A stretch of DNA of 32,000 bases from Candidatus Methylomirabilis limnetica. Its GTDB lineage: Bacteria; Methylomirabilota; Methylomirabilia; Methylomirabilales; Methylomirabilaceae. The stretch is taken from positions 64,168 to 96,167 of the forward strand of contig NZ_NVQC01000028.1 in assembly GCF_003044035.1 (NCBI RefSeq), in the 5' to 3' direction. Each line of letters opens with the position of its first letter. Positions within the stretch are counted from its first letter, which is position 1. Below, piece by piece: positions 6,057 through 32,000 of the stretch. Under the pieces are notes generated by a model, which worked only from the letters and a program-made list of their open reading frames with translations, was not told where the DNA came from and did no database searches. The translations under genes were made by a program, and so were the position numbers.

Positions 6057-6527
6057 ATGTTGCCAAAATATCAGAAACTGCTGGTGACTACAGATCTCTC
6101 ACCCCTCGGAAACACCGCAGTCCTCCATGCCTATGCTATCCTGGCAGAGCGTGGCGGCACTGTCATCCTTTGGTGTGCGGTTGACGTGTCAGGGATTCCG
6201 GACCCGCTCTACGCTCAGCCCACGCCTGGGGAGACGCTCGCTGAGGAGCGGACGGAGATCCGGGAAAAGCTGTTCTCCTCACTGGAAGCACTTGTGCCTG
6301 AGGAGGTTCGTGCAGAGGGAAAGGTGACCACGAAGATACGGGTAGTGGAGGTCTCCGGACCGATCCATGATACGATATGCCAAGAGGCTGCAGCTCAGGA
6401 GGTGGACCTCATCGTGATGGCATCCCATGGCTATTCCGGGATGAAGCACCTGCTCCTGGGCTCAGTGGCAGAGCATGTGGTGCGGTCAGCCGATCGCCCC
6501 GTTCTCATTATCCGCGGCCGAGAGTGA
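6057..6527 (+). CDS. Universal stress protein (UspA family)
   Basis: KLLVTTDLSPLG ... DLIVMASHGYSGMKHLLLGSVAEHVVRSADRPVLIIR. ATG at 6057 is preceded by GAGGAGG. The ORF-track start at 5937 is a TTG and gives an implausible extension. Confidence 0.85.
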   Translation: MLPKYQKLLVTTDLSPLGNTAVLHAYAILAERGGTVILWCAVDVSGIPDPLYAQPTPGETLAEERTEIREKLFSSLEALVPEEVRAEGKVTTKIRVVEVSGPIHDTICQEAAAQEVDLIVMASHGYSGMKHLLLGSVAEHVVRSADRPVLIIRGRE

Positions 6528-6554
6528 GGACTCTCACCGCTCACTTCGCTCGTC

Positions 6555-6929
6555 ATGGCGCGACGGTGGATGATGGACTGCGAATTGCTGACGCCGAAGA
6601 TTGAGTCGCTGGACAAATCAGATATGGATACTCGTGGGGCGCAAGAGCCATTCGAGGAACCGGTGATCCTACCCACCGAGGATATCCTCGATCTGCACGC
6701 CTTCGCGCCCAAGGAGATCCCGTCGGTAGTCGAGGAGTACATCGAACAGTGCAGGGAGGCGAAGATGTCAGAAGTTCGGCTGATCTATGGGAAAGGGACG
6801 GGGACGCAGCGGGCGATTGTCCAGCGCCTGATGGCGAGCCACCCAGGCGTCATCTCCTTCACCGACGCCCCACCCGAGGCGGGGGGATGGGGAGCAACGA
6901 TCGTCCGGTTGAGACCATCGGAAATCTAG
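6555..6929 (+). CDS. Stand-alone Smr (small MutS-related) domain protein
   Basis: LDLHAF...VRLIYGKGTGTQRAIV...PPEAGGWGATIVRL matches the Smr pattern DLHG...IHGKG.G.L...GG.GAT.V.L. The start is uncertain (6555, 6570 or 6624). Confidence 0.8.
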   Translation: MARRWMMDCELLTPKIESLDKSDMDTRGAQEPFEEPVILPTEDILDLHAFAPKEIPSVVEEYIEQCREAKMSEVRLIYGKGTGTQRAIVQRLMASHPGVISFTDAPPEAGGWGATIVRLRPSEI

Positions 6930-7633
6930 CGGAGGCCCTGGCAGAAGCGCACAAAGAAGGTCTGGGCCAGTCGGTTGAGCGTATCAATCCGGACCGGAAG
7001 CTGATCAAGGATCGCATCAGGCCGGATATAGTCCTTGACCCAGTCAAGCTCCTGCGTGAAAGTCCTGACCCAGTCAGAGACCATCGATGCCGTCACCTCG
7101 AGGTGAAACAGTAGGCCATAGACATTCCGGCCAATCGAGAAGGCCTGACACTCATAGAGTGCCGAACCGGCCAGGTTGACTGCCCTGGACGGCGCATCGA
7201 AATACTCGCCGTGCCACTCGAACACCTCAATCGACTCGGGGAACCCGCCGAACAGCCGATCGTGCTGCGCCGCCGTGGTGAGCCGGACCGGGTACCAGCC
7301 GATCTCCTTGCGCGGCCCCTGCCGGATCGCCCCGCCGGCCGCCTTTGCGATAAGCTGCGAGCCGAGACAGATGCCCAATGTGGGAACATCGAGCGCCAGC
7401 GCCTCTTTCAGGAGTCGATCCTCCGTCCTCAACCAGGGGTAATCAGCTTCGTCGTTGACACTCATCGGCCCGCCCATGACCAGGAGCCCGGAATACGGTG
7501 ACAAGCCTTCCGGTACCCGATCGCCCTCATACAGCCTTACCGTCTCCACTGGGCGATTCTGCTTCTCAAGCAGGTCAAGGAAGATGCCCGGGGTCTCGCA
7601 TCCGACGTGCTGGAGGACCAAGAGTGGTTTCAT
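6926..7633 (-). CDS. Class-I glutamine amidotransferase (GMP synthase N-domain-like)
   Basis: LLVMGGPMSVND and the nucleophile elbow LGICLGSQL. The stop codon overlaps the smr stop in a shared CTAG. Confidence 0.85.
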   Translation of the reverse strand: MKPLLVLQHVGCETPGIFLDLLEKQNRPVETVRLYEGDRVPEGLSPYSGLLVMGGPMSVNDEADYPWLRTEDRLLKEALALDVPTLGICLGSQLIAKAAGGAIRQGPRKEIGWYPVRLTTAAQHDRLFGGFPESIEVFEWHGEYFDAPSRAVNLAGSALYECQAFSIGRNVYGLLFHLEVTASMVSDWVRTFTQELDWVKDYIRPDAILDQLPVRIDTLNRLAQTFFVRFCQGLR

Positions 7634-7722
7634 CGCAACGGCAGGTAGGGCTTAACGCTTCGGCTTCAAGCTCTTTAACGGTGGTGGGCATGCACCGCTC
7701 TCCATGCCTTTGTTGGGCGCAC

Positions 7723-11202: not shown

Positions 11203-11953
11203 AAATAGGTACGGGCACTATTTCGTAAGACCCTTTCTTGGTCTTCCTCTATGCGAAACGCTTATAACTCGCCCCAGTTTCCTGCTCAATTCCCCGATGA
11301 ACCCATCCCTCCCCAGTGGTCGCCCTGTCATAGTGTGCCTTCGAATCGTTTCCACGTCTGGGGCATTATCGTCCAAATCGATGTGTTCTCTCCATGACTC
11401 CATGGAAACGCCCACTGATTCCTTTATCTCAATGACATCGACCATCTCACTCGTTCCACCGATGTGAGCGGCCGCACTGGACCATTTCCATTGCCAAGGC
11501 CTGTTGACCATCCTGGCCCGCACCGGATTCCTCTCAACATATCGCATTGCCGCCATAAGATACGGCTCATCAAGCAGACAGGAATAAAAGCGTCCCTGCC
11601 ACAAGTGCCCGGAGGCCTTTCTCTCTTTGTTGAAATACTGAGCATACCGCATATGGGCCACGCTGAACACTTTAGCCAACGATGCCTCTTCCTGCGGTTG
11701 GACAATGAAATGAACGTGATTGTCCATTAAGCAATAGGCCCATATCGACAGGTGAAATTTGCGGCTGTATTCATTAACCCAGGATAAGTATCGAGAACGA
11801 TCTTCGTCGTTACGAAAGACCGCCTGGCGATAATTCCCTCTTTGCGTAATATGGTAAGGGTGGCCGGGTGCAACGATTCGAGCAATCCGTGGCATGCAAG
11901 ATCATTAGAGCAAACACCCTAAATTGTCAAATAAATAGTGTCTGTCCCTATTT
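11203..11953 (-). mobile_element. Compact Y1-transposase unit bounded by inverted 21-bp hairpin motifs
   Basis: AAATAGGTACGGGCACTATTT (11203-11223) and the reverse complement of 11933-11953 (AAATAGGGACAGACACTATTT) match 18/21. Each is itself AAATAG-N9-CTATTT. Confidence 0.55.
11218..11895 (-). CDS. IS200-like / REP-associated tyrosine (Y1, HUH) transposase family protein
   Basis: MPRIARIVAPGHPYHITQRGNYRQAVF and the HUH motif CLMDNHVHFIV. The 225-aa length is typical of RAYT-like proteins. Confidence 0.8.
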   Translation of the reverse strand: MPRIARIVAPGHPYHITQRGNYRQAVFRNDEDRSRYLSWVNEYSRKFHLSIWAYCLMDNHVHFIVQPQEEASLAKVFSVAHMRYAQYFNKERKASGHLWQGRFYSCLLDEPYLMAAMRYVERNPVRARMVNRPWQWKWSSAAAHIGGTSEMVDVIEIKESVGVSMESWREHIDLDDNAPDVETIRRHTMTGRPLGRDGFIGELSRKLGRVISVSHRGRPRKGLTK

Positions 11954-25267: not shown

Positions 25268-26914
25268 TTATCGCTGCATCGCCTCGAAGGCGATCTTTTC
25301 TTGTGCCACGAACATCTGCTGACGCTTCACCAGCTCGCCAAAGTCCACCTGGTACGCGTTAAAATCCGGCCCGTGATAGCAGGCGAACCTGGTTTTGCCG
25401 CCCACCGTCACCCGGCAGGCACCGCACATGCCGGTGCCGTCCACCATGATGGCGTTCAGCGAGACCCATGCTTCTATTCCCTTCCCCTCCGTCACCTTGG
25501 CGACGGCCATCATCATCGGCACGGGGCCGACCGCCAAAACCATGGACACCTTCTCCCTCTCCATGATCTTCTCCAGCGCATGGGTGACGAAGCCTTGAAT
25601 ACCAACCGACCCGTCATTGGTGGTGACGAATACCTCGTCGCACACCGCCTTAAGTTCGTCCACCAGTATCAGCAGGTCCTTCGTGCGGGCGCCCACTATG
25701 CCGTAGACCTTATTGCCGAGCTGCCTCAAATCCCGTGCCGTGGGAATGACGGCGCCCGTACCGTAGCCGCCGCCGAGCACCACGCAGGCCCCCTCATATT
25801 TGGCAACATGGGAGCGCTGGCCCAGCGGCCCGACGACGTCCTGGATACTGTCGCCTACGTTTTTCATCGTGGCCTCGGTGGATGTCCTGCCGGCAGCCAT
25901 AATGACGAGTTCGAGATACCCCTTTTCCCTGTCCCATCCGGCGATGGAGAGGGGGATGCGCTCACTGTCAAGGTTGGGACGGATGATGATGAACTGCCCG
26001 GCCTGTATCTTTTTCGCGAGAAGCGGCGCGTTCACCTTAAAGTAGTAGGTGTTGGCGCACAGTTCTCGCTTTTCAAGTATCGTAAAATCCTGGTGGTACC
26101 TGCCCCTGGATGGGTTCTCGCTCTCTTTAGAGCTGCCATGGCAGTAGTGCAGTTGATGTTCAGCCTCACTGCGAACGATAAAGGCATCGTCCCAGTCGAA
26201 GTGATCCATTCCGAGGATGGCACGAAGAGCATTGTGGCTTTTCTCCACCTGCCCCGACGTGAAATAGGAGTGGCGAACGCCTTTCCCTATGGCGCGCACG
26301 GCATGCCTGCGAACAAGGGCCGACGGATCTGAAAGGCCGACGAACAGCTTATCGAACAGCGTCGACCGGTCCGCGTCACTGATCGTTTCGGGGGCAATGC
26401 GGTTGAAAATCCGCCCCATACAGTAAAAGGCGGCGGACTTCACCTGCTTATTGGCAGACCCTGCGCACCTCAAGGCCTCAGGCAGGACCCTGGCAATGGC
26501 CGGATCGGTGAAATGTCCCGCCGCCAACAGGAGGTTGATCTGAGAATAGTCGTCGCCCTTGCTCGTGTCGAACCGGGAAAGAAGCAGATCTACGGCAGGT
26601 GCGCCGATGCGCCCTAAGGCGCCGGCGAAATGCTCCGCCGATTCCGCATCAGCCTCAACAAGTTGCTCAATAGTCCATCCAGCCACCTCTACGCCAAGGG
26701 AGGCCAGGATCAACTCGCTCTGATCAATGAGTTGAGAAAGTTCCTCATCGCCGGAGGGGTCCCGGTAAAAGGTAGTGGAGATCGCTGCTGCCAACTCCTG
26801 CTTTTCCTCGTAAGAGAGGTCGGAAAGCGTAGAGACCTCCGCCAGGGCGGCCTTCAACTGGTCAGTGTTCTGGGACGAGATGTTCGCTGTAATGCTGTTG
26901 ATTCTATTTGTCAT
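25268..26914 (-). CDS. NfnA/SudB/PyrK-like FAD/[2Fe-2S] electron-transfer subunit with ~265-aa HEAT-like N-terminal extension
   Basis: The C-terminal ~285 aa have RIPLSIAG, GPLG and GTGMCGACRV motifs. The N-terminal part contains LSDPSALVRRHAVRAIGK-type repeats. ATG 26914 or GTG 26944. 15-nt gap and GGGAGAGG SD before the downstream gltD-like gene. Confidence 0.8.
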   Translation of the reverse strand: MTNRINSITANISSQNTDQLKAALAEVSTLSDLSYEEKQELAAAISTTFYRDPSGDEELSQLIDQSELILASLGVEVAGWTIEQLVEADAESAEHFAGALGRIGAPAVDLLLSRFDTSKGDDYSQINLLLAAGHFTDPAIARVLPEALRCAGSANKQVKSAAFYCMGRIFNRIAPETISDADRSTLFDKLFVGLSDPSALVRRHAVRAIGKGVRHSYFTSGQVEKSHNALRAILGMDHFDWDDAFIVRSEAEHQLHYCHGSSKESENPSRGRYHQDFTILEKRELCANTYYFKVNAPLLAKKIQAGQFIIIRPNLDSERIPLSIAGWDREKGYLELVIMAAGRTSTEATMKNVGDSIQDVVGPLGQRSHVAKYEGACVVLGGGYGTGAVIPTARDLRQLGNKVYGIVGARTKDLLILVDELKAVCDEVFVTTNDGSVGIQGFVTHALEKIMEREKVSMVLAVGPVPMMMAVAKVTEGKGIEAWVSLNAIMVDGTGMCGACRVTVGGKTRFACYHGPDFNAYQVDFGELVKRQQMFVAQEKIAFEAMQR

Positions 26915-27112
26915 CGCGACAAGCTTCCTCCAAAGATCCTTCACCTCTTACACTTTTACTATGCTTTGGGCAAGAATTCCCCACTGATGATACACGAAAG
27001 TTTACCTGTTCACAACCAAATCTGCAATCCCAAGGTAACCATTCAGTTACGGGTGGAAAATCTCCCCCCGGCTTAACACATGCCGGGGCAGGCCCGCATG
27101 GGCAGGCTCTAA

Positions 27113-27249
27113 CCCTCTTTTCCAAAGAGGGGGACTAACCGTTTCCCCCTTTGAAAAAGGGGGCGGGGGTTTATCTTGAATGGAGGACACCATGATGCGC
27201 CGGAGGGCGGAGGGAGAAACCCCCTTCGATCCCCCTTTGCCAAAGGGGG
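27113..27249. repeat. Cluster of three G/C hairpin repeat units (27113-27133, 27145-27175, 27216-27249)
   Basis: CCCTCTTT-TCC-AAAGAGGG; CCCCCTTT-GAA-AAAGGGGG+CGGGGGTTTATC; inverted copy GAAACCCCCTTCGAT+CCCCCTTTG-C-CAAAGGGGG. Same family as 2801-2836. Confidence 0.65.
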
Positions 27250-27283
27250 AGATCGGAAGAACCAATTTTCTCTTGTGACTTAC

Positions 27284-27510: not shown

Positions 27511-27951
27511 AGCGTGGACATAATGTCCTGAAGGTTCAGGAAACTCCAAGACGAGTTGGGCAAAGGGTAGCGAACCGCAAACTCTTCGGGCCGTATTGTC
27601 GCAAACGTCCTTCGGAAATGCCGCGCTTGCGCACCTAGCTCACCACTACTAATCCACCCTCCGGGGAGTCCACATTACGGGGGTGGAATCTTTTAAAGAG
27701 TTTAGCGGCAGGGAGAAATGCGGGAAGGTCTTGGTGTGCGAGTCGTTTATGGTAGCCTGCGAACGACTCCGGCGATAGCGGCTGGGGTGACGGATCGTGT
27801 GGGGAGTTTAGAGGATTTTGTGGATGGGAAGTCGAATGGGTAGAACTGCTCAAAGACCGCCCTGTTTTTCGAAGGGATTTAGGTGCAGTAAGGAAACCAG
27901 GGGCCATCACTTTCCTACTTTGCTGGCCAGAGATCAGAGATCGACTCTTGG

Positions 27952-28149
27952 CTAGACCGTGAGGGCCTTGTATAGAAAGCGACGGATGTAGTTCCTGCTG
28001 TCCTTCGGCAGCGTTTGCCAGTAGGGTTTGATCTCAAGGACCAACAGGTCAGTTTCCTCATCCTCAAAACGCCGGGACTCTTGCGACATTGAATCCTGGG
28101 ATTCTTGTCTCTCCGCTGCGACTTTCTCCTCTCTAGCCTTTGCTTCCAT
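27952..28149 (-). CDS. Small protein, 65 aa, acidic N-terminal half and basic C-terminal helix
   Basis: ATG preceded by AGGAGGGG (4-nt spacer) embedded in the end of the upstream gene. 17-nt overlap suggests translational coupling. Confidence 0.5.
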   Translation of the reverse strand: MEAKAREEKVAAERQESQDSMSQESRRFEDEETDLLVLEIKPYWQTLPKDSRNYIRRFLYKALTV

Positions 28150-29113
28150 GCACCCCTCCTGTTTCTAATGAAACTTCCTTTGCGTTCTGGGTCGCAGGTA
28201 GAGCCTTACTTAATAGCAGATGAAGTCTATAAGTAAACCTTATAAGGGCAAAAAAAGGTTCTAATGTAGTTCTTACCGCTTCCTTAAATCGAGCCTCATC
28301 TCTGAAGTAATCAGCCACATCGCAGTCCAATGATAGCACACCTACGAATTCTTGAGACTTGTCGAGTTTATCGGTAAACATCACAGGAAAACAAGCTATC
28401 GATTTTATGCGGTGGTGTCGCTGGCTCTTTGATGTAAGGCCATGTAGGTCATCCTTGCGAACATCTGGCACAACAACGATTGCCTTTTCTGCCCAACATG
28501 TTCCCGCGCAACCCTCATTCAATATAAAGCCTTCTCTGTTCGAGGAGGGGGAGTTGTCTGAATTTACATATGCGACCACCTGAAGCTTCTGCCCAATCGG
28601 CATGAGGAAACCGACAGTAAGATGAATATTCAGATCCCGGTTGCCCTTAGCAACCACCCAGAAAACTTCCTTCAGGATCACCTCTACAATTTCTGCGTAA
28701 TTGAACCTTGCGTGTTCAACTATTTCCATCAGAGTTGGCTGGCCGGCAAAAAAACGTTCCAGACCGTACATGGTGTTGTTTGTCAGCCGCCTCACTGATA
28801 CAAGGACAGCCCTTAGATCCATCAGGACATCGTTAACAAGCTTGAGGTGCGTATTGATCTGGTCCAGAGTGCTCTGATTGGCTGTTGCCTGCATCTTGCG
28901 CCGCTTGAAGTGGCTGAACGGAAATATGACAAAAAAGTACAAAATAATGCAAGTCCAGAATGCTACTGCCTCATTCGGGCTCCTTGCTGAATCAATCTGC
29001 GAGCGCCATATTCCTAGACCGAGGGGTATGGCAACAAGAACGAACTGGAAAAAGAAACCATACAGTTGATTTTCTGGGAATTTCTGCTCTGGTGTCCTTA
29101 TTTCAATATGCAT
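28133..29113 (-). CDS. Membrane-anchored (2 TM) GAF-domain protein without an output domain
   Basis: TM helices LYGFFFQFVLVAIPLGLGIW and AVAFWTCIILYFFVIFPF. GAF-like pattern GCAGTCWAEKAIVVVPDVRKDD ... SIACFPVM ... FVGVLSLD. Low-GC codon usage. Confidence 0.7.
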   Translation of the reverse strand: MHIEIRTPEQKFPENQLYGFFFQFVLVAIPLGLGIWRSQIDSARSPNEAVAFWTCIILYFFVIFPFSHFKRRKMQATANQSTLDQINTHLKLVNDVLMDLRAVLVSVRRLTNNTMYGLERFFAGQPTLMEIVEHARFNYAEIVEVILKEVFWVVAKGNRDLNIHLTVGFLMPIGQKLQVVAYVNSDNSPSSNREGFILNEGCAGTCWAEKAIVVVPDVRKDDLHGLTSKSQRHHRIKSIACFPVMFTDKLDKSQEFVGVLSLDCDVADYFRDEARFKEAVRTTLEPFFALIRFTYRLHLLLSKALPATQNAKEVSLETGGVHGSKG

Positions 29114-29668
29114 TAGCTGTCAGCCAAGCGCCGTACTGATTGAGTCGGATGGTTAGGAGTCTTCCTGGGCTGTGATTGGCGACTGCGCCGCGCCACGGGA
29201 CGCACAGGGGGATCTAAGCTGTAGCTGTTCCACGATCCTCCACAAATGGAAGAGTCTTGATATCCGATGACATTGCGCTCTCCTCGCCGACCGCGATCGT
29301 TAGGACTTTTTGGTATCATTTTCTCCGGCAATATTTCGATCAGTCTGGTGGCAACTCTTTCAGTCGCTTCGCAACTTCATTGGTTTTTGTGCTTCGTAGA
29401 GCTTTTGACGCTAGCATAACATCACTGGGACTAGAAGCAAAATACATACCAATCAAACCTGTATGCCCTTCAAATTTGGACAGCACCCCCTCACAATAGA
29501 CTGCATTAACTAGTTGTCACGTTAGCTTTCCGAATGCGGCGGGTAGTTTCATGCTTTAAGCATCGGCACTAGGGCTTGATCAGTCAAGTGCTGTTCCGCC
29601 GCGGTATTGGGTCAGTTTGAAAATGGACAGGGCTTGCCAGCAGATGTCGGCAGCCCTGCATTTAGGGT

Positions 29669-29921: not shown

Positions 29922-30506
29922 CTATCTGTGCCTAGCTTTTTTCCTCTTCTTGTCTCGATTCCTTTGTTTCCGCTTTTCATCTTGACTCAGAGGCACCGCA
30001 TGGATTCCATGCTTTCTGTTGTGTTCATTAATTTCCTCAACAAAATCGATCGGTTCATTTGATGGCGTCCTGAACGTCCAATGCGTGTGCCCGTTATGAT
30101 TTGTAATCGCAAAGTCACCAAACGCAATAATGTCCATGCCTAAGAGGACGTCCGCCCCAGCGATCCCTCCATCGGAAACACGAACACCAACAATCCAGAC
30201 GTTGTTGGGCAAGTAAATGTTGACCAGGTATGTATTGGCTTCATATTCATGACTCTGATCACCAGCGCCAACACTGTGAACATTTTCTTTACCACTTGGT
30301 TGAAGATTTAGTTCTTGGGCAATCTTTGGGCTAATGACAGTAGCTGTGGCTCCACAATCCCAAACGGCAATGTATGGCCGTTTAATTGGCTCAGGTTGGC
30401 CCGTTGCTGGGTCATACGCTTCACTGATATGAACCTGATTCAGTAGTTCCCTGACAATTCCGTTGGATTTGGTGGTAAAGGCTCTGAGGCCAGGTAGGAA
30501 TTTCAC
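29922..30506 (-). CDS. Retropepsin-like (clan AA) aspartic protease with poly-basic C-terminal tail
   Basis: VWDCGATATVIS (D-x-G-A active-site loop with Cys in place of Thr/Ser), VLLGMDII motif, tail KRKQRNRDKKRKKARHR. GTG start with no in-frame ATG upstream of the catalytic motif. Confidence 0.7.
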   Translation of the reverse strand: MKFLPGLRAFTTKSNGIVRELLNQVHISEAYDPATGQPEPIKRPYIAVWDCGATATVISPKIAQELNLQPSGKENVHSVGAGDQSHEYEANTYLVNIYLPNNVWIVGVRVSDGGIAGADVLLGMDIIAFGDFAITNHNGHTHWTFRTPSNEPIDFVEEINEHNRKHGIHAVPLSQDEKRKQRNRDKKRKKARHR

Positions 30507-30541
30507 TGCGGAACTCAGTAACTGCGGATGAAATTAGACGG

Positions 30542-30778
30542 TTAGCCGAACGCCACACGCGAATGGTAGCGTTGGATGACGCGGTCTTTGCTAGGCACGC
30601 AATGCTGAAGAAGGAACTTCCCCAAGCCGTATTTTTTCTTCATCTCCTGGTAGGCTGTTAGTTCTGAATCAAAAACCCCTACAACCTCTTCATCTACAAT
30701 GGCAATAAATTTGCCATTGTAGCGCTCTATAAGGTCGCTTTCGTGGGTCTTAAAATAGTGATATTCCCGGTCAAGCAT
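30542..30778 (-). CDS. Small 78-aa protein co-transcribed with the protease (YNGKFIAIVDEEVVGV motif)
   Basis: ATG with GAGGGGA SD. 35-nt gap to the protease gene. Fold-like motif Y.GK.IAI....V. Confidence 0.65.
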   Translation of the reverse strand: MLDREYHYFKTHESDLIERYNGKFIAIVDEEVVGVFDSELTAYQEMKKKYGLGKFLLQHCVPSKDRVIQRYHSRVAFG

Positions 30779-31071: not shown

Positions 31072-31860
31072 TCACCCCGTTGCCCGATTTCCCCAAAACT
31101 CCTCCCACCGGCCACTGATCTGACAGCAACGTAGGGCGATAATTGCGTTGGCCCCTCTGACAGTCCATCTCATTCCCGACTGTTTGAGCCGTTGTCCCAC
31201 GATCGTTTTACAGCCGGCTTCAATAACTCCGGATCCTACAAACAAGCCCTGCTTTATCCATTCAGCATAGAGCATGCGATCTTGATTCGTCTCAAAATAC
31301 CCCACTGTTTTTTGAACTTCCCCCCAAACCGACGGGTTCTGCGGCTGCAGTCGTTTGATGGCAGCAATGACTTTTTTTACATCGCCTTCTTTCAGTTCAT
31401 CCTTTTGCTTTTTAAACCATCGTGTCACTTCTTCTCCCGTCGATCCATACACTAGCTTTCCAATAGTCCACAGGTGTTCCAAGGCATGAAACAGATCCAC
31501 GACGTGAATCGCGTTCGGAAAATGCTCGTCGCCGATCCCGCGAATCCATACAGCGCCATCCCCCAAAAGAATAACCTTCTGAGCCCGAGTCACACCTCGA
31601 CGCACAGCCTCGGCATAAATCCTTTTGCCAAATTCCTCTGCCGTCTCAATGGCTCCTACGTAAGTGGTGGAATCCTCGTCACGGATGGGGAACCCTTTCT
31701 GATCGAGTTGGGTCTGGGTAAAGACGCATCCCAATTTGGCTTCCCGAGTCTTTGCTATGGGTGTTTGCTTGCCCTTGCGCCCTTCGGTCTCGGATGGAAC
31801 AACCGGAACGCCAGTCCCGTCGATGGCGATGTAGAGCTTGGGAACAGGTGAAAAAAGAGG
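31072..31860 (-). mobile_element. 5'-truncated DDE transposase (ISKra4-like by recollection), C-terminal ~265 aa only
   Basis: IAIDGTGVPVV, AKLGCVFTQ, VILLGDGAVWI and VVDLFHALEHL contain the D, D, E positions. The N-terminal half of such transposases is missing. The boundary is approximate. Confidence 0.6.
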
Positions 31861-32000
31861 GATCACCTTGCCATCTGTGGCGATGCTTCCCTCCTCCACG
31901 GTCACCAGTTCGCAGCCCTTCGCACCCTGCTCTCTAATATGCCGGCCCTGAGGGTTGCCGGGATACACCACCCACGGATCCTTAGACACGATTTCCCTTG
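31861..32000 (-). pseudogene. Fragment of an SbcD/YhaO-like metallophosphoesterase (DNA repair exonuclease), fused in frame to the transposase fragment
   Basis: VVYPGNPQGRHIREQGAKGCELVTVEEG resembles the conserved segment of SbcD-like exonucleases. The frame is open to the window end. Assignment is by recollection only. Confidence 0.35.

Follow-up and report, generated by a model that had tools for sequence, protein, structure and literature searches.

Two-gene modules in which the toxin combines a membrane anchor, a helix and a GAF domain have a precedent. In the validated 281-aa (amino acid) toxin toxFtsL(D9) of Gelidibacter mesophilus, a transmembrane (TM) segment is joined to a dimerising helix that resembles FtsL, and a GAF domain follows (PMC10440598). 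It is neutralised by the separately encoded antitoxin PanA, as described for NetFlax by Ernits et al. 2023 (PMC10440598), and its effects comprise filamentation, delocalisation of FtsZ and delayed lysis without depolarisation (PMC10440598). Here we analyse a two-gene cassette of Candidatus Methylomirabilis limnetica, which encodes a 326-aa membrane-anchored GAF protein and a 65-aa partner protein. It lies in a stretch of 32,000 nucleotides (nt), referred to as the window (RefSeq assembly GCF_003044035.1, contig NZ_NVQC01000028.1, positions 64,168 to 96,167 of the forward strand). The cassette is very rare, its family is unannotated, and the partner is new. By analogy, we tentatively read the pair as a self-contained, horizontally mobile toxin-antitoxin (TA) or abortive-infection module, a reading to which we give somewhat less than an even chance. 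Compared by description, toxFtsL(D9):PanA is its nearest experimentally characterised analogue. The GAF protein shares with toxFtsL(D9) a membrane anchor, a long helix, a GAF domain and the lack of an enzymatic output, and the pair shares with toxFtsL(D9):PanA the organisation as a two-gene unit with a dedicated (here putative) neutraliser in a mobile TA/defence setting.

The cassette was delineated from its open reading frames (ORFs), hydropathy, profile searches, an AlphaFold2 (AF2) model and comparison with two close loci, L001 and L002. Its features, with the evidence for each, are:

28133-29113, minus strand: gene of the 326-aa membrane-anchored GAF protein (ORF call, TM hydropathy, Pfam GAF, AF2 model)
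29006-29065, minus strand: first TM helix, TM1, aa 17-36 (Kyte-Doolittle windows)
28907-28978, minus strand: second TM helix, TM2, aa 46-69 (Kyte-Doolittle windows)
28907-29065, minus strand: TM hairpin, with a loop of ~9 residues between TM1 and TM2 (hydropathy; AF2 helices 16-40 and 46-124)
Part of 28133-29113, minus strand: helical stalk, aa 70-135
28211-28708, minus strand: GAF domain, aa ~136-301 (Pfam, family profile, AF2, Foldseek)
28153-28160, minus strand: Shine-Dalgarno sequence AGGAGGGG of the 65-aa ORF, inside the final codons of the GAF gene
27952-28149, minus strand: gene of the 65-aa partner (ORF, recurrence in L001/L002, ratio of nonsynonymous to synonymous substitution rates, dN/dS)
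27868-27951, minus strand: conserved 3' untranslated stretch of ~85 nt (alignment of the three close loci)

The start of the 65-aa ORF overlaps the end of the 326-aa ORF by 17 nt, and a gap of 3 nt separates AGGAGGGG from its ATG. An earlier model-made note, which had only the letters of this DNA and its ORF list at hand (the sequence-only reading), had described the overlap and the buried Shine-Dalgarno sequence, and both were found where it had placed them. In the alignment of the window, L001 and L002, AGGAGGGG is identical in 3/3 loci, and the annotated frame of the 65-aa ORF is the sole one open across all three. Coupled translation of this kind is predicted to fix the stoichiometry of the GAF protein and the 65-aa protein. 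Scans of the window for promoters and terminators gave a signal no higher than background.

The two N-terminal TM helices proposed earlier were recovered in the hydropathy profile. The loop between them is short and an HFKRRK stretch follows directly after TM2; under the positive-inside rule, the short loop and the KRRK residues predict an in-in hairpin, with the N-terminus and the GAF domain both in the cytoplasm. A usable AF2 model required an alignment of 18 family sequences and reached a predicted local distance difference test (pLDDT) score of 74, with 80-90 over most of the GAF core; from the three close sequences alone pLDDT was 34 and the model useless. The model shows a helix at residues 16-40, an unbroken helix at residues 46-124 that comprises TM2 and the stalk, and an alpha/beta domain at residues ~139-301, after which the tail is disordered. 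The linker of ~35 aa proposed from the sequence was thus too short, as the helix is predicted to run without a break from TM2 to residue 124.

Profile matches and fold search both place the domain firmly among the GAFs. Pfam PF01590 matched residues 188-273 of the protein with 25.2 bits (cut-off 22.4, E 2.5e-5), and the family profile matched the GAF structure of Aquifex Nlh1, 4g3w, with E 3.3e-7. When the AF2 model was compared with the PDB by Foldseek, the top 50 matches were all GAF-domain structures (E down to 1e-7), including fRMsr, Nlh1/2, YKL069W, PDE2/5/6, Lcd1 and cyanobacteriochromes. Residues L177, P189, G201, A203, W207, S238, P243, D263 and P286 of the GAF domain are invariant in the family. 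A complete GAF domain without a recognisable output domain had been claimed before; both parts hold, as neither the Pfam scan nor the AF2 model revealed an output domain beyond the GAF. The Pfam scan, taken up to E 10, returned GAF and GAF_2 only and no FtsL/DivIC profile match. The protein differs from toxFtsL(D9) in that no FtsL-like region is recognised by the Pfam scan, and also in having two TM helices. Binding in the GAF pocket is putative, and gating of the domain by a ligand is conjecture.

GAF domains bind cyclic nucleotide monophosphates (cNMPs), and TM-only effectors are common in systems of the type of CBASS (cyclic-oligonucleotide-based antiphage signalling system) and Pycsar (pyrimidine cyclase system for antiphage resistance). 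The sequence-only reading had invoked the logic of these systems, and the pair resembles their TM effectors in carrying a sensor-type domain on a minimal TM module in a mobile/defence-island setting. As an orphan effector of this type, the GAF protein would bind a cyclic or modified nucleotide whose source would be the host, a phage or a distant gene; binding would drive the TM hairpins to permeabilise the membrane, and the small protein would act as a brake. Several cNMP-binding GAFs are among the PDB neighbours, and GAF is among the nucleotide-binding domains listed for conflict systems (PMC7159879). One link to nucleotide-based conflict comes from a distant relative, P0017, whose gene is translationally coupled to that of an adenosine deaminase by overlapping its 3' end (L006 5227-7432; L007 827-3032). 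This deaminase is Cad1-like and CARF-less, and matches PADLOC CARF_ADA with E 2e-44 over the deaminase half only. However, the nearest structural neighbours of the 326-aa protein are GAFs of the fRMsr and Nlh1 types, which are not cNMP binders; a GAF stands in the place of the cNMP-binding, SAVED or STING domain of Pycsar/CBASS effectors; what is conserved beside it is the product of a small ORF, not an enzyme; and there was no PADLOC match. In agreement with the earlier statement that no cyclase is visible nearby, no cyclase family was detected among the scanned ORFs of the window. No CD-NTase or nucleotide cyclase was detected beside any member in L001-L017, several of which are contigs of ~1-1.5 kb with little context, and TIR signal generators and mCpol were likewise not found in about a dozen contexts that include several short contigs. 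The CBASS/Pycsar logic is thus unsupported. The orphan-effector explanation is weakened because no cyclase was detected, is kept alive by the link between P0017 and the deaminase and by GAF chemistry, and appears quite unlikely to us.

Foldseek comparison of the model with BFVD returned viral proteins that combine TM segments with a globular domain: a Gordonia phage membrane protein (E 9e-8), the Class III holin of Proteus phage Stubb (E 6e-5), the Holin of phiP4-3 and the T holin lysis mediator of Serratia phage PS2 (E 5e-3). These matches would fit a phage-derived holin/antiholin-like pair for lysis or exclusion, in which the GAF protein would form lesions like those of the class III holin T, with the 65-aa protein in the role of RI or RIII. 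Holin T of phage T4 has one TM and a periplasmic domain, and its binding proteins RI and RIII have 80-100 aa. Its likeness to our pair lies in a membrane anchor joined to an alpha/beta globular domain and in a small dedicated partner, as T is controlled by small antiholins (PMC11413866). The matches to annotated T-like holins had E-values of 6e-5 to 5e-3, TM-scores (template modelling scores) of 0.27-0.53 and root-mean-square deviations mostly above 20 A. Direct comparison of the family profile with T4 T by hhalign gave a probability of 0.2%, the Pfam family Phage_holin_T was not matched, and the solved T structures lie outside the top 50 PDB matches. The topology differs as well, with two TMs and a predicted cytoplasmic domain in our protein, the module does not lie in a phage, no endolysin gene is adjacent, and no relatives were found in the phage and viral collections described below. 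A holin/antiholin origin is accordingly very unlikely. As a homolog, T4 holin T was rejected by the direct comparison, and it serves as an architectural analogy only.

The 65-aa partner has a net charge of -5 in its N-terminal half (11 D/E, 6 K/R) and +3 in its C-terminal half. Its helical hydrophobic moment peaks at residues 43-58, and the C-terminal segment is strongly amphipathic and basic, which bears out the division into an acidic and a basic amphipathic half proposed from the sequence. The charged N-terminal half evolves fast, and the C-terminal half, LLVLEIKPYWQTLP...NYIRRFLYKALTV, is conserved. No significant match was found in Pfam or NCBIfam, hydropathy revealed no hydrophobic stretch of membrane-spanning length, and a homolog search with the protein returned no relatives beyond its own clade. 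The partner constitutes a new family of orphan proteins.

Purifying selection acts on both genes of the cassette. Values of dN/dS by the method of Nei-Gojobori, with regional values taken from the window against L002, are:

GAF gene, overall: 0.18
GAF gene, TM region: 0.19
GAF gene, stalk: 0.44
GAF gene, GAF domain: 0.09
Small ORF, overall: 0.35 (range 0.33-0.35)
Small ORF, N-terminal half: 0.39
Small ORF, C-terminal half: 0.21 (range 0.17-0.21)

Across the family, the small partner diverges faster than the GAF protein; antitoxins usually diverge faster than their toxins. The end of the cassette is conserved at the nucleotide level. Positions 27868-27993, which cover the final 42 nt of the small ORF together with the ~85 nt of 3' untranslated region (UTR), are near-invariant in the three close loci, which are ~24% diverged elsewhere, and dS is 0.33-0.47 in the C-terminal half of the small ORF versus 1.0-1.4 in the GAF gene. 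RNAalifold predicted two weakly supported hairpins in the 3' UTR, with 25 pairs and one compensatory change, and the single-sequence fold was no better than those of shuffled sequences (z = 0.70). The hairpins are not statistically distinctive and do not account for the extra nucleotide-level constraint. The conserved 3' UTR is possibly a terminator or a stabiliser.

These properties of the small protein also bear on an explanation in which the roles are reversed. The GAF protein would then be a membrane-anchored sensor that holds the small protein inactive, and the latter would be the effector, a membrane-active peptide or a regulator released on a membrane or ligand cue, following the logic of anti-sigma/sigma factor pairs. 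No output domain follows the GAF, so that binding of the partner may be its sole output, and coupling fixes the stoichiometry of the two. The C-terminal segment of the small protein is strongly amphipathic and basic, and no other part of the pair is as well conserved at the nucleotide level. Against this, the small protein evolves much faster than the GAF protein, which is unusual for an effector, has no hydrophobic stretch that could span a membrane, and is missing beside P0017. We regard the reversed roles as unlikely.

The small ORF recurs beside relatives of the GAF gene, whose neighbourhoods had been proposed as the place to look for recurring partners such as cyclases; the small ORF recurs there, and no cyclase was detected. 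On the contigs of the two closest relatives, P0002 and P0003, a 65-aa ORF follows the GAF gene with the same 17-nt overlap, and the 65-aa ORFs of L001 and L002 are 88% and 72% identical to that of the window, respectively. The recurrence reaches deep into the family: at six further loci, whose GAF proteins are ~20-30% identical to ours, an ORF of 54-82 aa lies directly downstream. These ORFs and their positions relative to the GAF stop codon are:

L011, beside P0007: 74 aa, 4-nt overlap
L012/L013, beside P0009: 66 aa, starting at +15 nt
L014, beside P0011: at least 60 aa, 4-nt overlap
L015, beside P0012: 82 aa, starting at +4 nt
L016, beside P0013: 70 aa, starting at +35 nt
L017, beside P0010: 54 aa, starting at +17 nt

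Ribosome-binding motifs of the GGAG type precede the small ORFs of L011, L012, L015, L016 and L017. At L010 and L008 (P0005 and its relative P0006), a 63-aa ORF with a similar C-terminal helix lies immediately upstream of the GAF gene. The 65-aa protein shares with the small proteins of L011 and L015 a C-terminal motif, E[IF]xPx[WY]xx[IL]P...NxIR[RK]x[FL][YH][KR]x[LF][TS], and the following C-termini are alike:

Window: EIKPYWQTLPKDSRNYIRRFLYKALTV
L011: EFTPKYRKIPSTGLLNRIRKHFYRTFTVP
L015: EFKPEWENIPKKGIYNKIRRHFHRVFSEP
L010: ...DLLARLRKVLYLLFAP

A hidden Markov model (HMM) built from seven distant small ORFs was run against 1317 sequences, namely the three proteins of the window clade and 1314 decoy ORFs of 40-120 aa drawn from all the sequences analysed. 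The window-clade proteins took ranks 1-3 of 1317, with E 3.5e-4, 3.2e-3 and 0.11. The reverse HMM, built from the window clade, placed L015 at rank 1 (E 0.0045) and L011 at rank 2 (E 0.04). Judged from these profiles, the small ORFs of L011 and L015 are detectably homologous to the 65-aa protein. The frame of the partner is thus kept next to homologs of the GAF gene.

When 1.84 billion cluster representatives were scanned exhaustively with HMMER, a family of 26 proteins emerged at E <= 1e-3, 11 of them at E <= 1e-10. Most are 300-325 aa long and combine hydrophobic segments near the N-terminus, a helical linker and a GAF core. The clusters that were checked (21/26) have 1-10 members each, all from metagenomes or metagenome-assembled genomes, and the only functional name among them is an automatic IMG label on P0013. 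A word-indexed homolog search found two relatives, P0002 with 81% and P0003 with 71% identity, and querying with the family profile added one. No relatives were found in 185,579 reference genomes searched with two pattern sets, in viral contigs searched with three sub-family alignments, or in phage and plasmid records searched by tblastn; JGI metagenome contigs yielded one short locus. The family is restricted to organisms that have not been cultured, and it has no known host in culture. The contig of one relative, P0004, is 1314 nt long (L009) and carries only a gene for two TM helices and a GAF domain and a 52-aa ORF that overlaps it. It has an exact 55-nt terminal direct overlap, as assemblers produce from a circle, here of 1259 nt, or from a tandem repeat.

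The pair stands at the start of a stretch of 47-49% GC, which extends from ~27000 to at least 32000 in the window, and the flanking chromosome has 58% GC. Genes on the flanking chromosome are of the housekeeping type (IleRS, RluD-like, CorA, ThiI, dTDP-sugar, MutS2-like, PurU and an NfnAB-like pair). In a search of tRNA and Rfam families, none marked the border of the island. Directly upstream of the GAF gene, the island holds the following decayed remnants:

29157-29486, minus strand: 3' end of a gene for a ClpP-like SDH serine protease together with a 95-aa gene (blastn against L002)

A frameshift and internal deletions leave the ORF fragments ...EVAKRLKELPPD and MPEKMIPKSPNDRG there. In L002, the genes of the SDH protease (SDH_protease PF01972, E 1.5e-12) and of the 95-aa protein are whole and precede the pair (6496-7720), while in L001 at least the 95-aa gene is deleted. 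The ancestral cassette may thus have had four genes. As the pair is intact where the protease and 95-aa genes decay or vanish, it persists without them.

The three close copies, in the window, L001 and L002, have three unrelated neighbourhoods. Upstream of the cassette in L002 (518-5848), three tandem genes encode proteins like tyrosine recombinases (441, 623 and 712 aa), a trio that resembles a recombinase-in-trio element. L001 carries a type IIG restriction-methyltransferase and a specificity subunit. Mobile and defence genes are also found with more distant members. Excisionase-like HTH_17 genes, of a helix-turn-helix (HTH) family, lie just upstream of the GAF gene in L016 and L017, and a transposase HTH is found nearby in L011. 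Downstream of the P0012 module in L015 (1811-2685) is a pair of genes for 94 and 197 aa, the longer product of which is matched by 1TM-TIR of PADLOC with E 3e-8. The integrative element with P0017 contains a serine recombinase, ImmA/HTH, Replic_Relax, RadC and a Dam-type methylase.

These contexts argue against the pair being an ordinary housekeeping membrane sensor followed by an incidental downstream ORF, an explanation that is disfavoured. The one point on its side is the pair of L012/L013, which lies amid dnaA, dnaN, recF-like, fpg and uvrA with no mobile-element gene nearby. The family is very sparse and patchy, the neighbourhoods of its three close copies are unrelated to one another, the GC content is low relative to the flanking chromosome, and the small ORF both experiences purifying selection and reappears in other parts of the family. 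The setting in the window is a variable, low-GC mobile island and not a conserved housekeeping context, and the explanation is extremely improbable.

Other features of the island and its flanks were recorded as follows:

29922-30778, minus strand: DUF5678 gene (78 aa) and gene of a retropepsin-like aspartyl protease (194 aa), 36 nt apart, located upstream of the pair, between the GAF module and the transposase
31072-31989, minus strand: ISKra4-family transposase ORF, matching profile positions 180-422 of 422 and either N-terminally truncated or running past the end of the window
27100-27260: three REP-like (repetitive extragenic palindromic) palindromes (CCCCCTTTG..CAAAGGGGG, with a variant), within the ~1 kb of non-coding DNA that separates the housekeeping NfnA-like gene from the island
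25268-26944, minus strand: Fe-S flavoprotein of the NfnA/DHODB type with an unusual N-terminal HEAT-repeat extension of ~280 aa
23750-25252: GltD/NfnB-like subunit, paired with this flavoprotein
11218-11895, minus strand: IS200-type Y1 transposase in a local GC dip (0.49) amid housekeeping genes

Returning to the pair as a TA or abortive-infection module, it matches the generic description of type II TA systems as a compact coupled two-gene operon with a patchy distribution in a mobile context. The sequence-only reading had left three options, an orphan effector, a sensor/antagonist pair and a TA-like unit, and the last fits best. The analysis shows the gene structure and its coupling, the GAF fold, purifying selection on both genes, the return of the pairing over deep divergence, and settings rich in mobile and defence genes; toxicity, which protein would neutralise the other, the interface between the two and the trigger are inferred. 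The 326-aa protein would sit in the inner membrane, where its two TM helices would form an in-in hairpin. Its dimerisation would probably involve the long helix that extends TM2, and its GAF domain would face the cytoplasm. It would be the growth-arresting part and may have the membrane or the divisome as its target, as for toxFtsL(D9). The 65-aa protein, produced in fixed proportion through translational coupling, would hold the 326-aa protein inactive by docking on its GAF domain or stalk, with contact made by the conserved amphipathic segment near the C-terminus of the small protein, and the charged, poorly conserved N-terminal half of the small protein would make it labile. If synthesis were to stop, upon takeover by a phage or loss of the island, the membrane protein would be freed. 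Docking of a small protein on a GAF domain is known from PDE6, where P-gamma is a small, largely disordered, charged inhibitory subunit. PDE6 entries are among the structural neighbours of the 326-aa model, but the likeness is an analogy only, since PDE6 is a eukaryotic enzyme complex and the small subunits are not homologous.

Several findings weigh against this reading. Homology of the small ORFs is statistically supported for the L011 and L015 clades only; those of L012, L016, L017, L010 and L008 are linked to the 65-aa protein by position and a loose C-terminal resemblance. The gene of P0004, at 49% identity, overlaps an ORF that is dissimilar to the 65-aa protein, and no small partner accompanies the distant P0017. 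Most type II antitoxins carry a DNA-binding domain, and searches of Pfam and NCBIfam found no HTH, ribbon-helix-helix or other DNA-binding fold in the 65-aa protein. Unlike PanA, it is an orphan without a Panacea domain, and no Panacea domain was found among the examined neighbours. None of the 21 checked family clusters holds a RefSeq protein (0/21), which argues against close homology to toxFtsL(D9), WP_027127282.1. Finally, no PADLOC model matched either window protein or P0005, P0007, P0009 or P0017, and NCBIfam likewise has no model for either window protein.

A more far-reaching version would make the pair a cellular, ligand-gated analogue of holin and antiholin. The cytoplasmic GAF domain would sense a small molecule derived from phage or stress, or the loss of the small protein, upon which the TM hairpins of a coiled-coil oligomer would open a lethal lesion, with the 65-aa protein as the brake. 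The pair would then represent a new abortive-infection family together with a new class of inhibitor, and would be tied by ancestry to a ClpP-like protease, by which the brake may be removed. We consider this version distinctly unlikely.

The extreme rarity of the family (26 clusters) limits its ecological weight. If the pair is a TA or abortive-infection module, it would provide a second, independent case of a membrane-anchored GAF protein as a toxic effector, would add small cognate neutralisers that form a new family identifiable by its C-terminal motif, and would widen the set of sensor domains in bacterial conflict systems. At ~1.2 kb, the two-gene unit is easy to synthesise and would offer a compact model for how a GAF domain may control cell fate without an enzymatic output.

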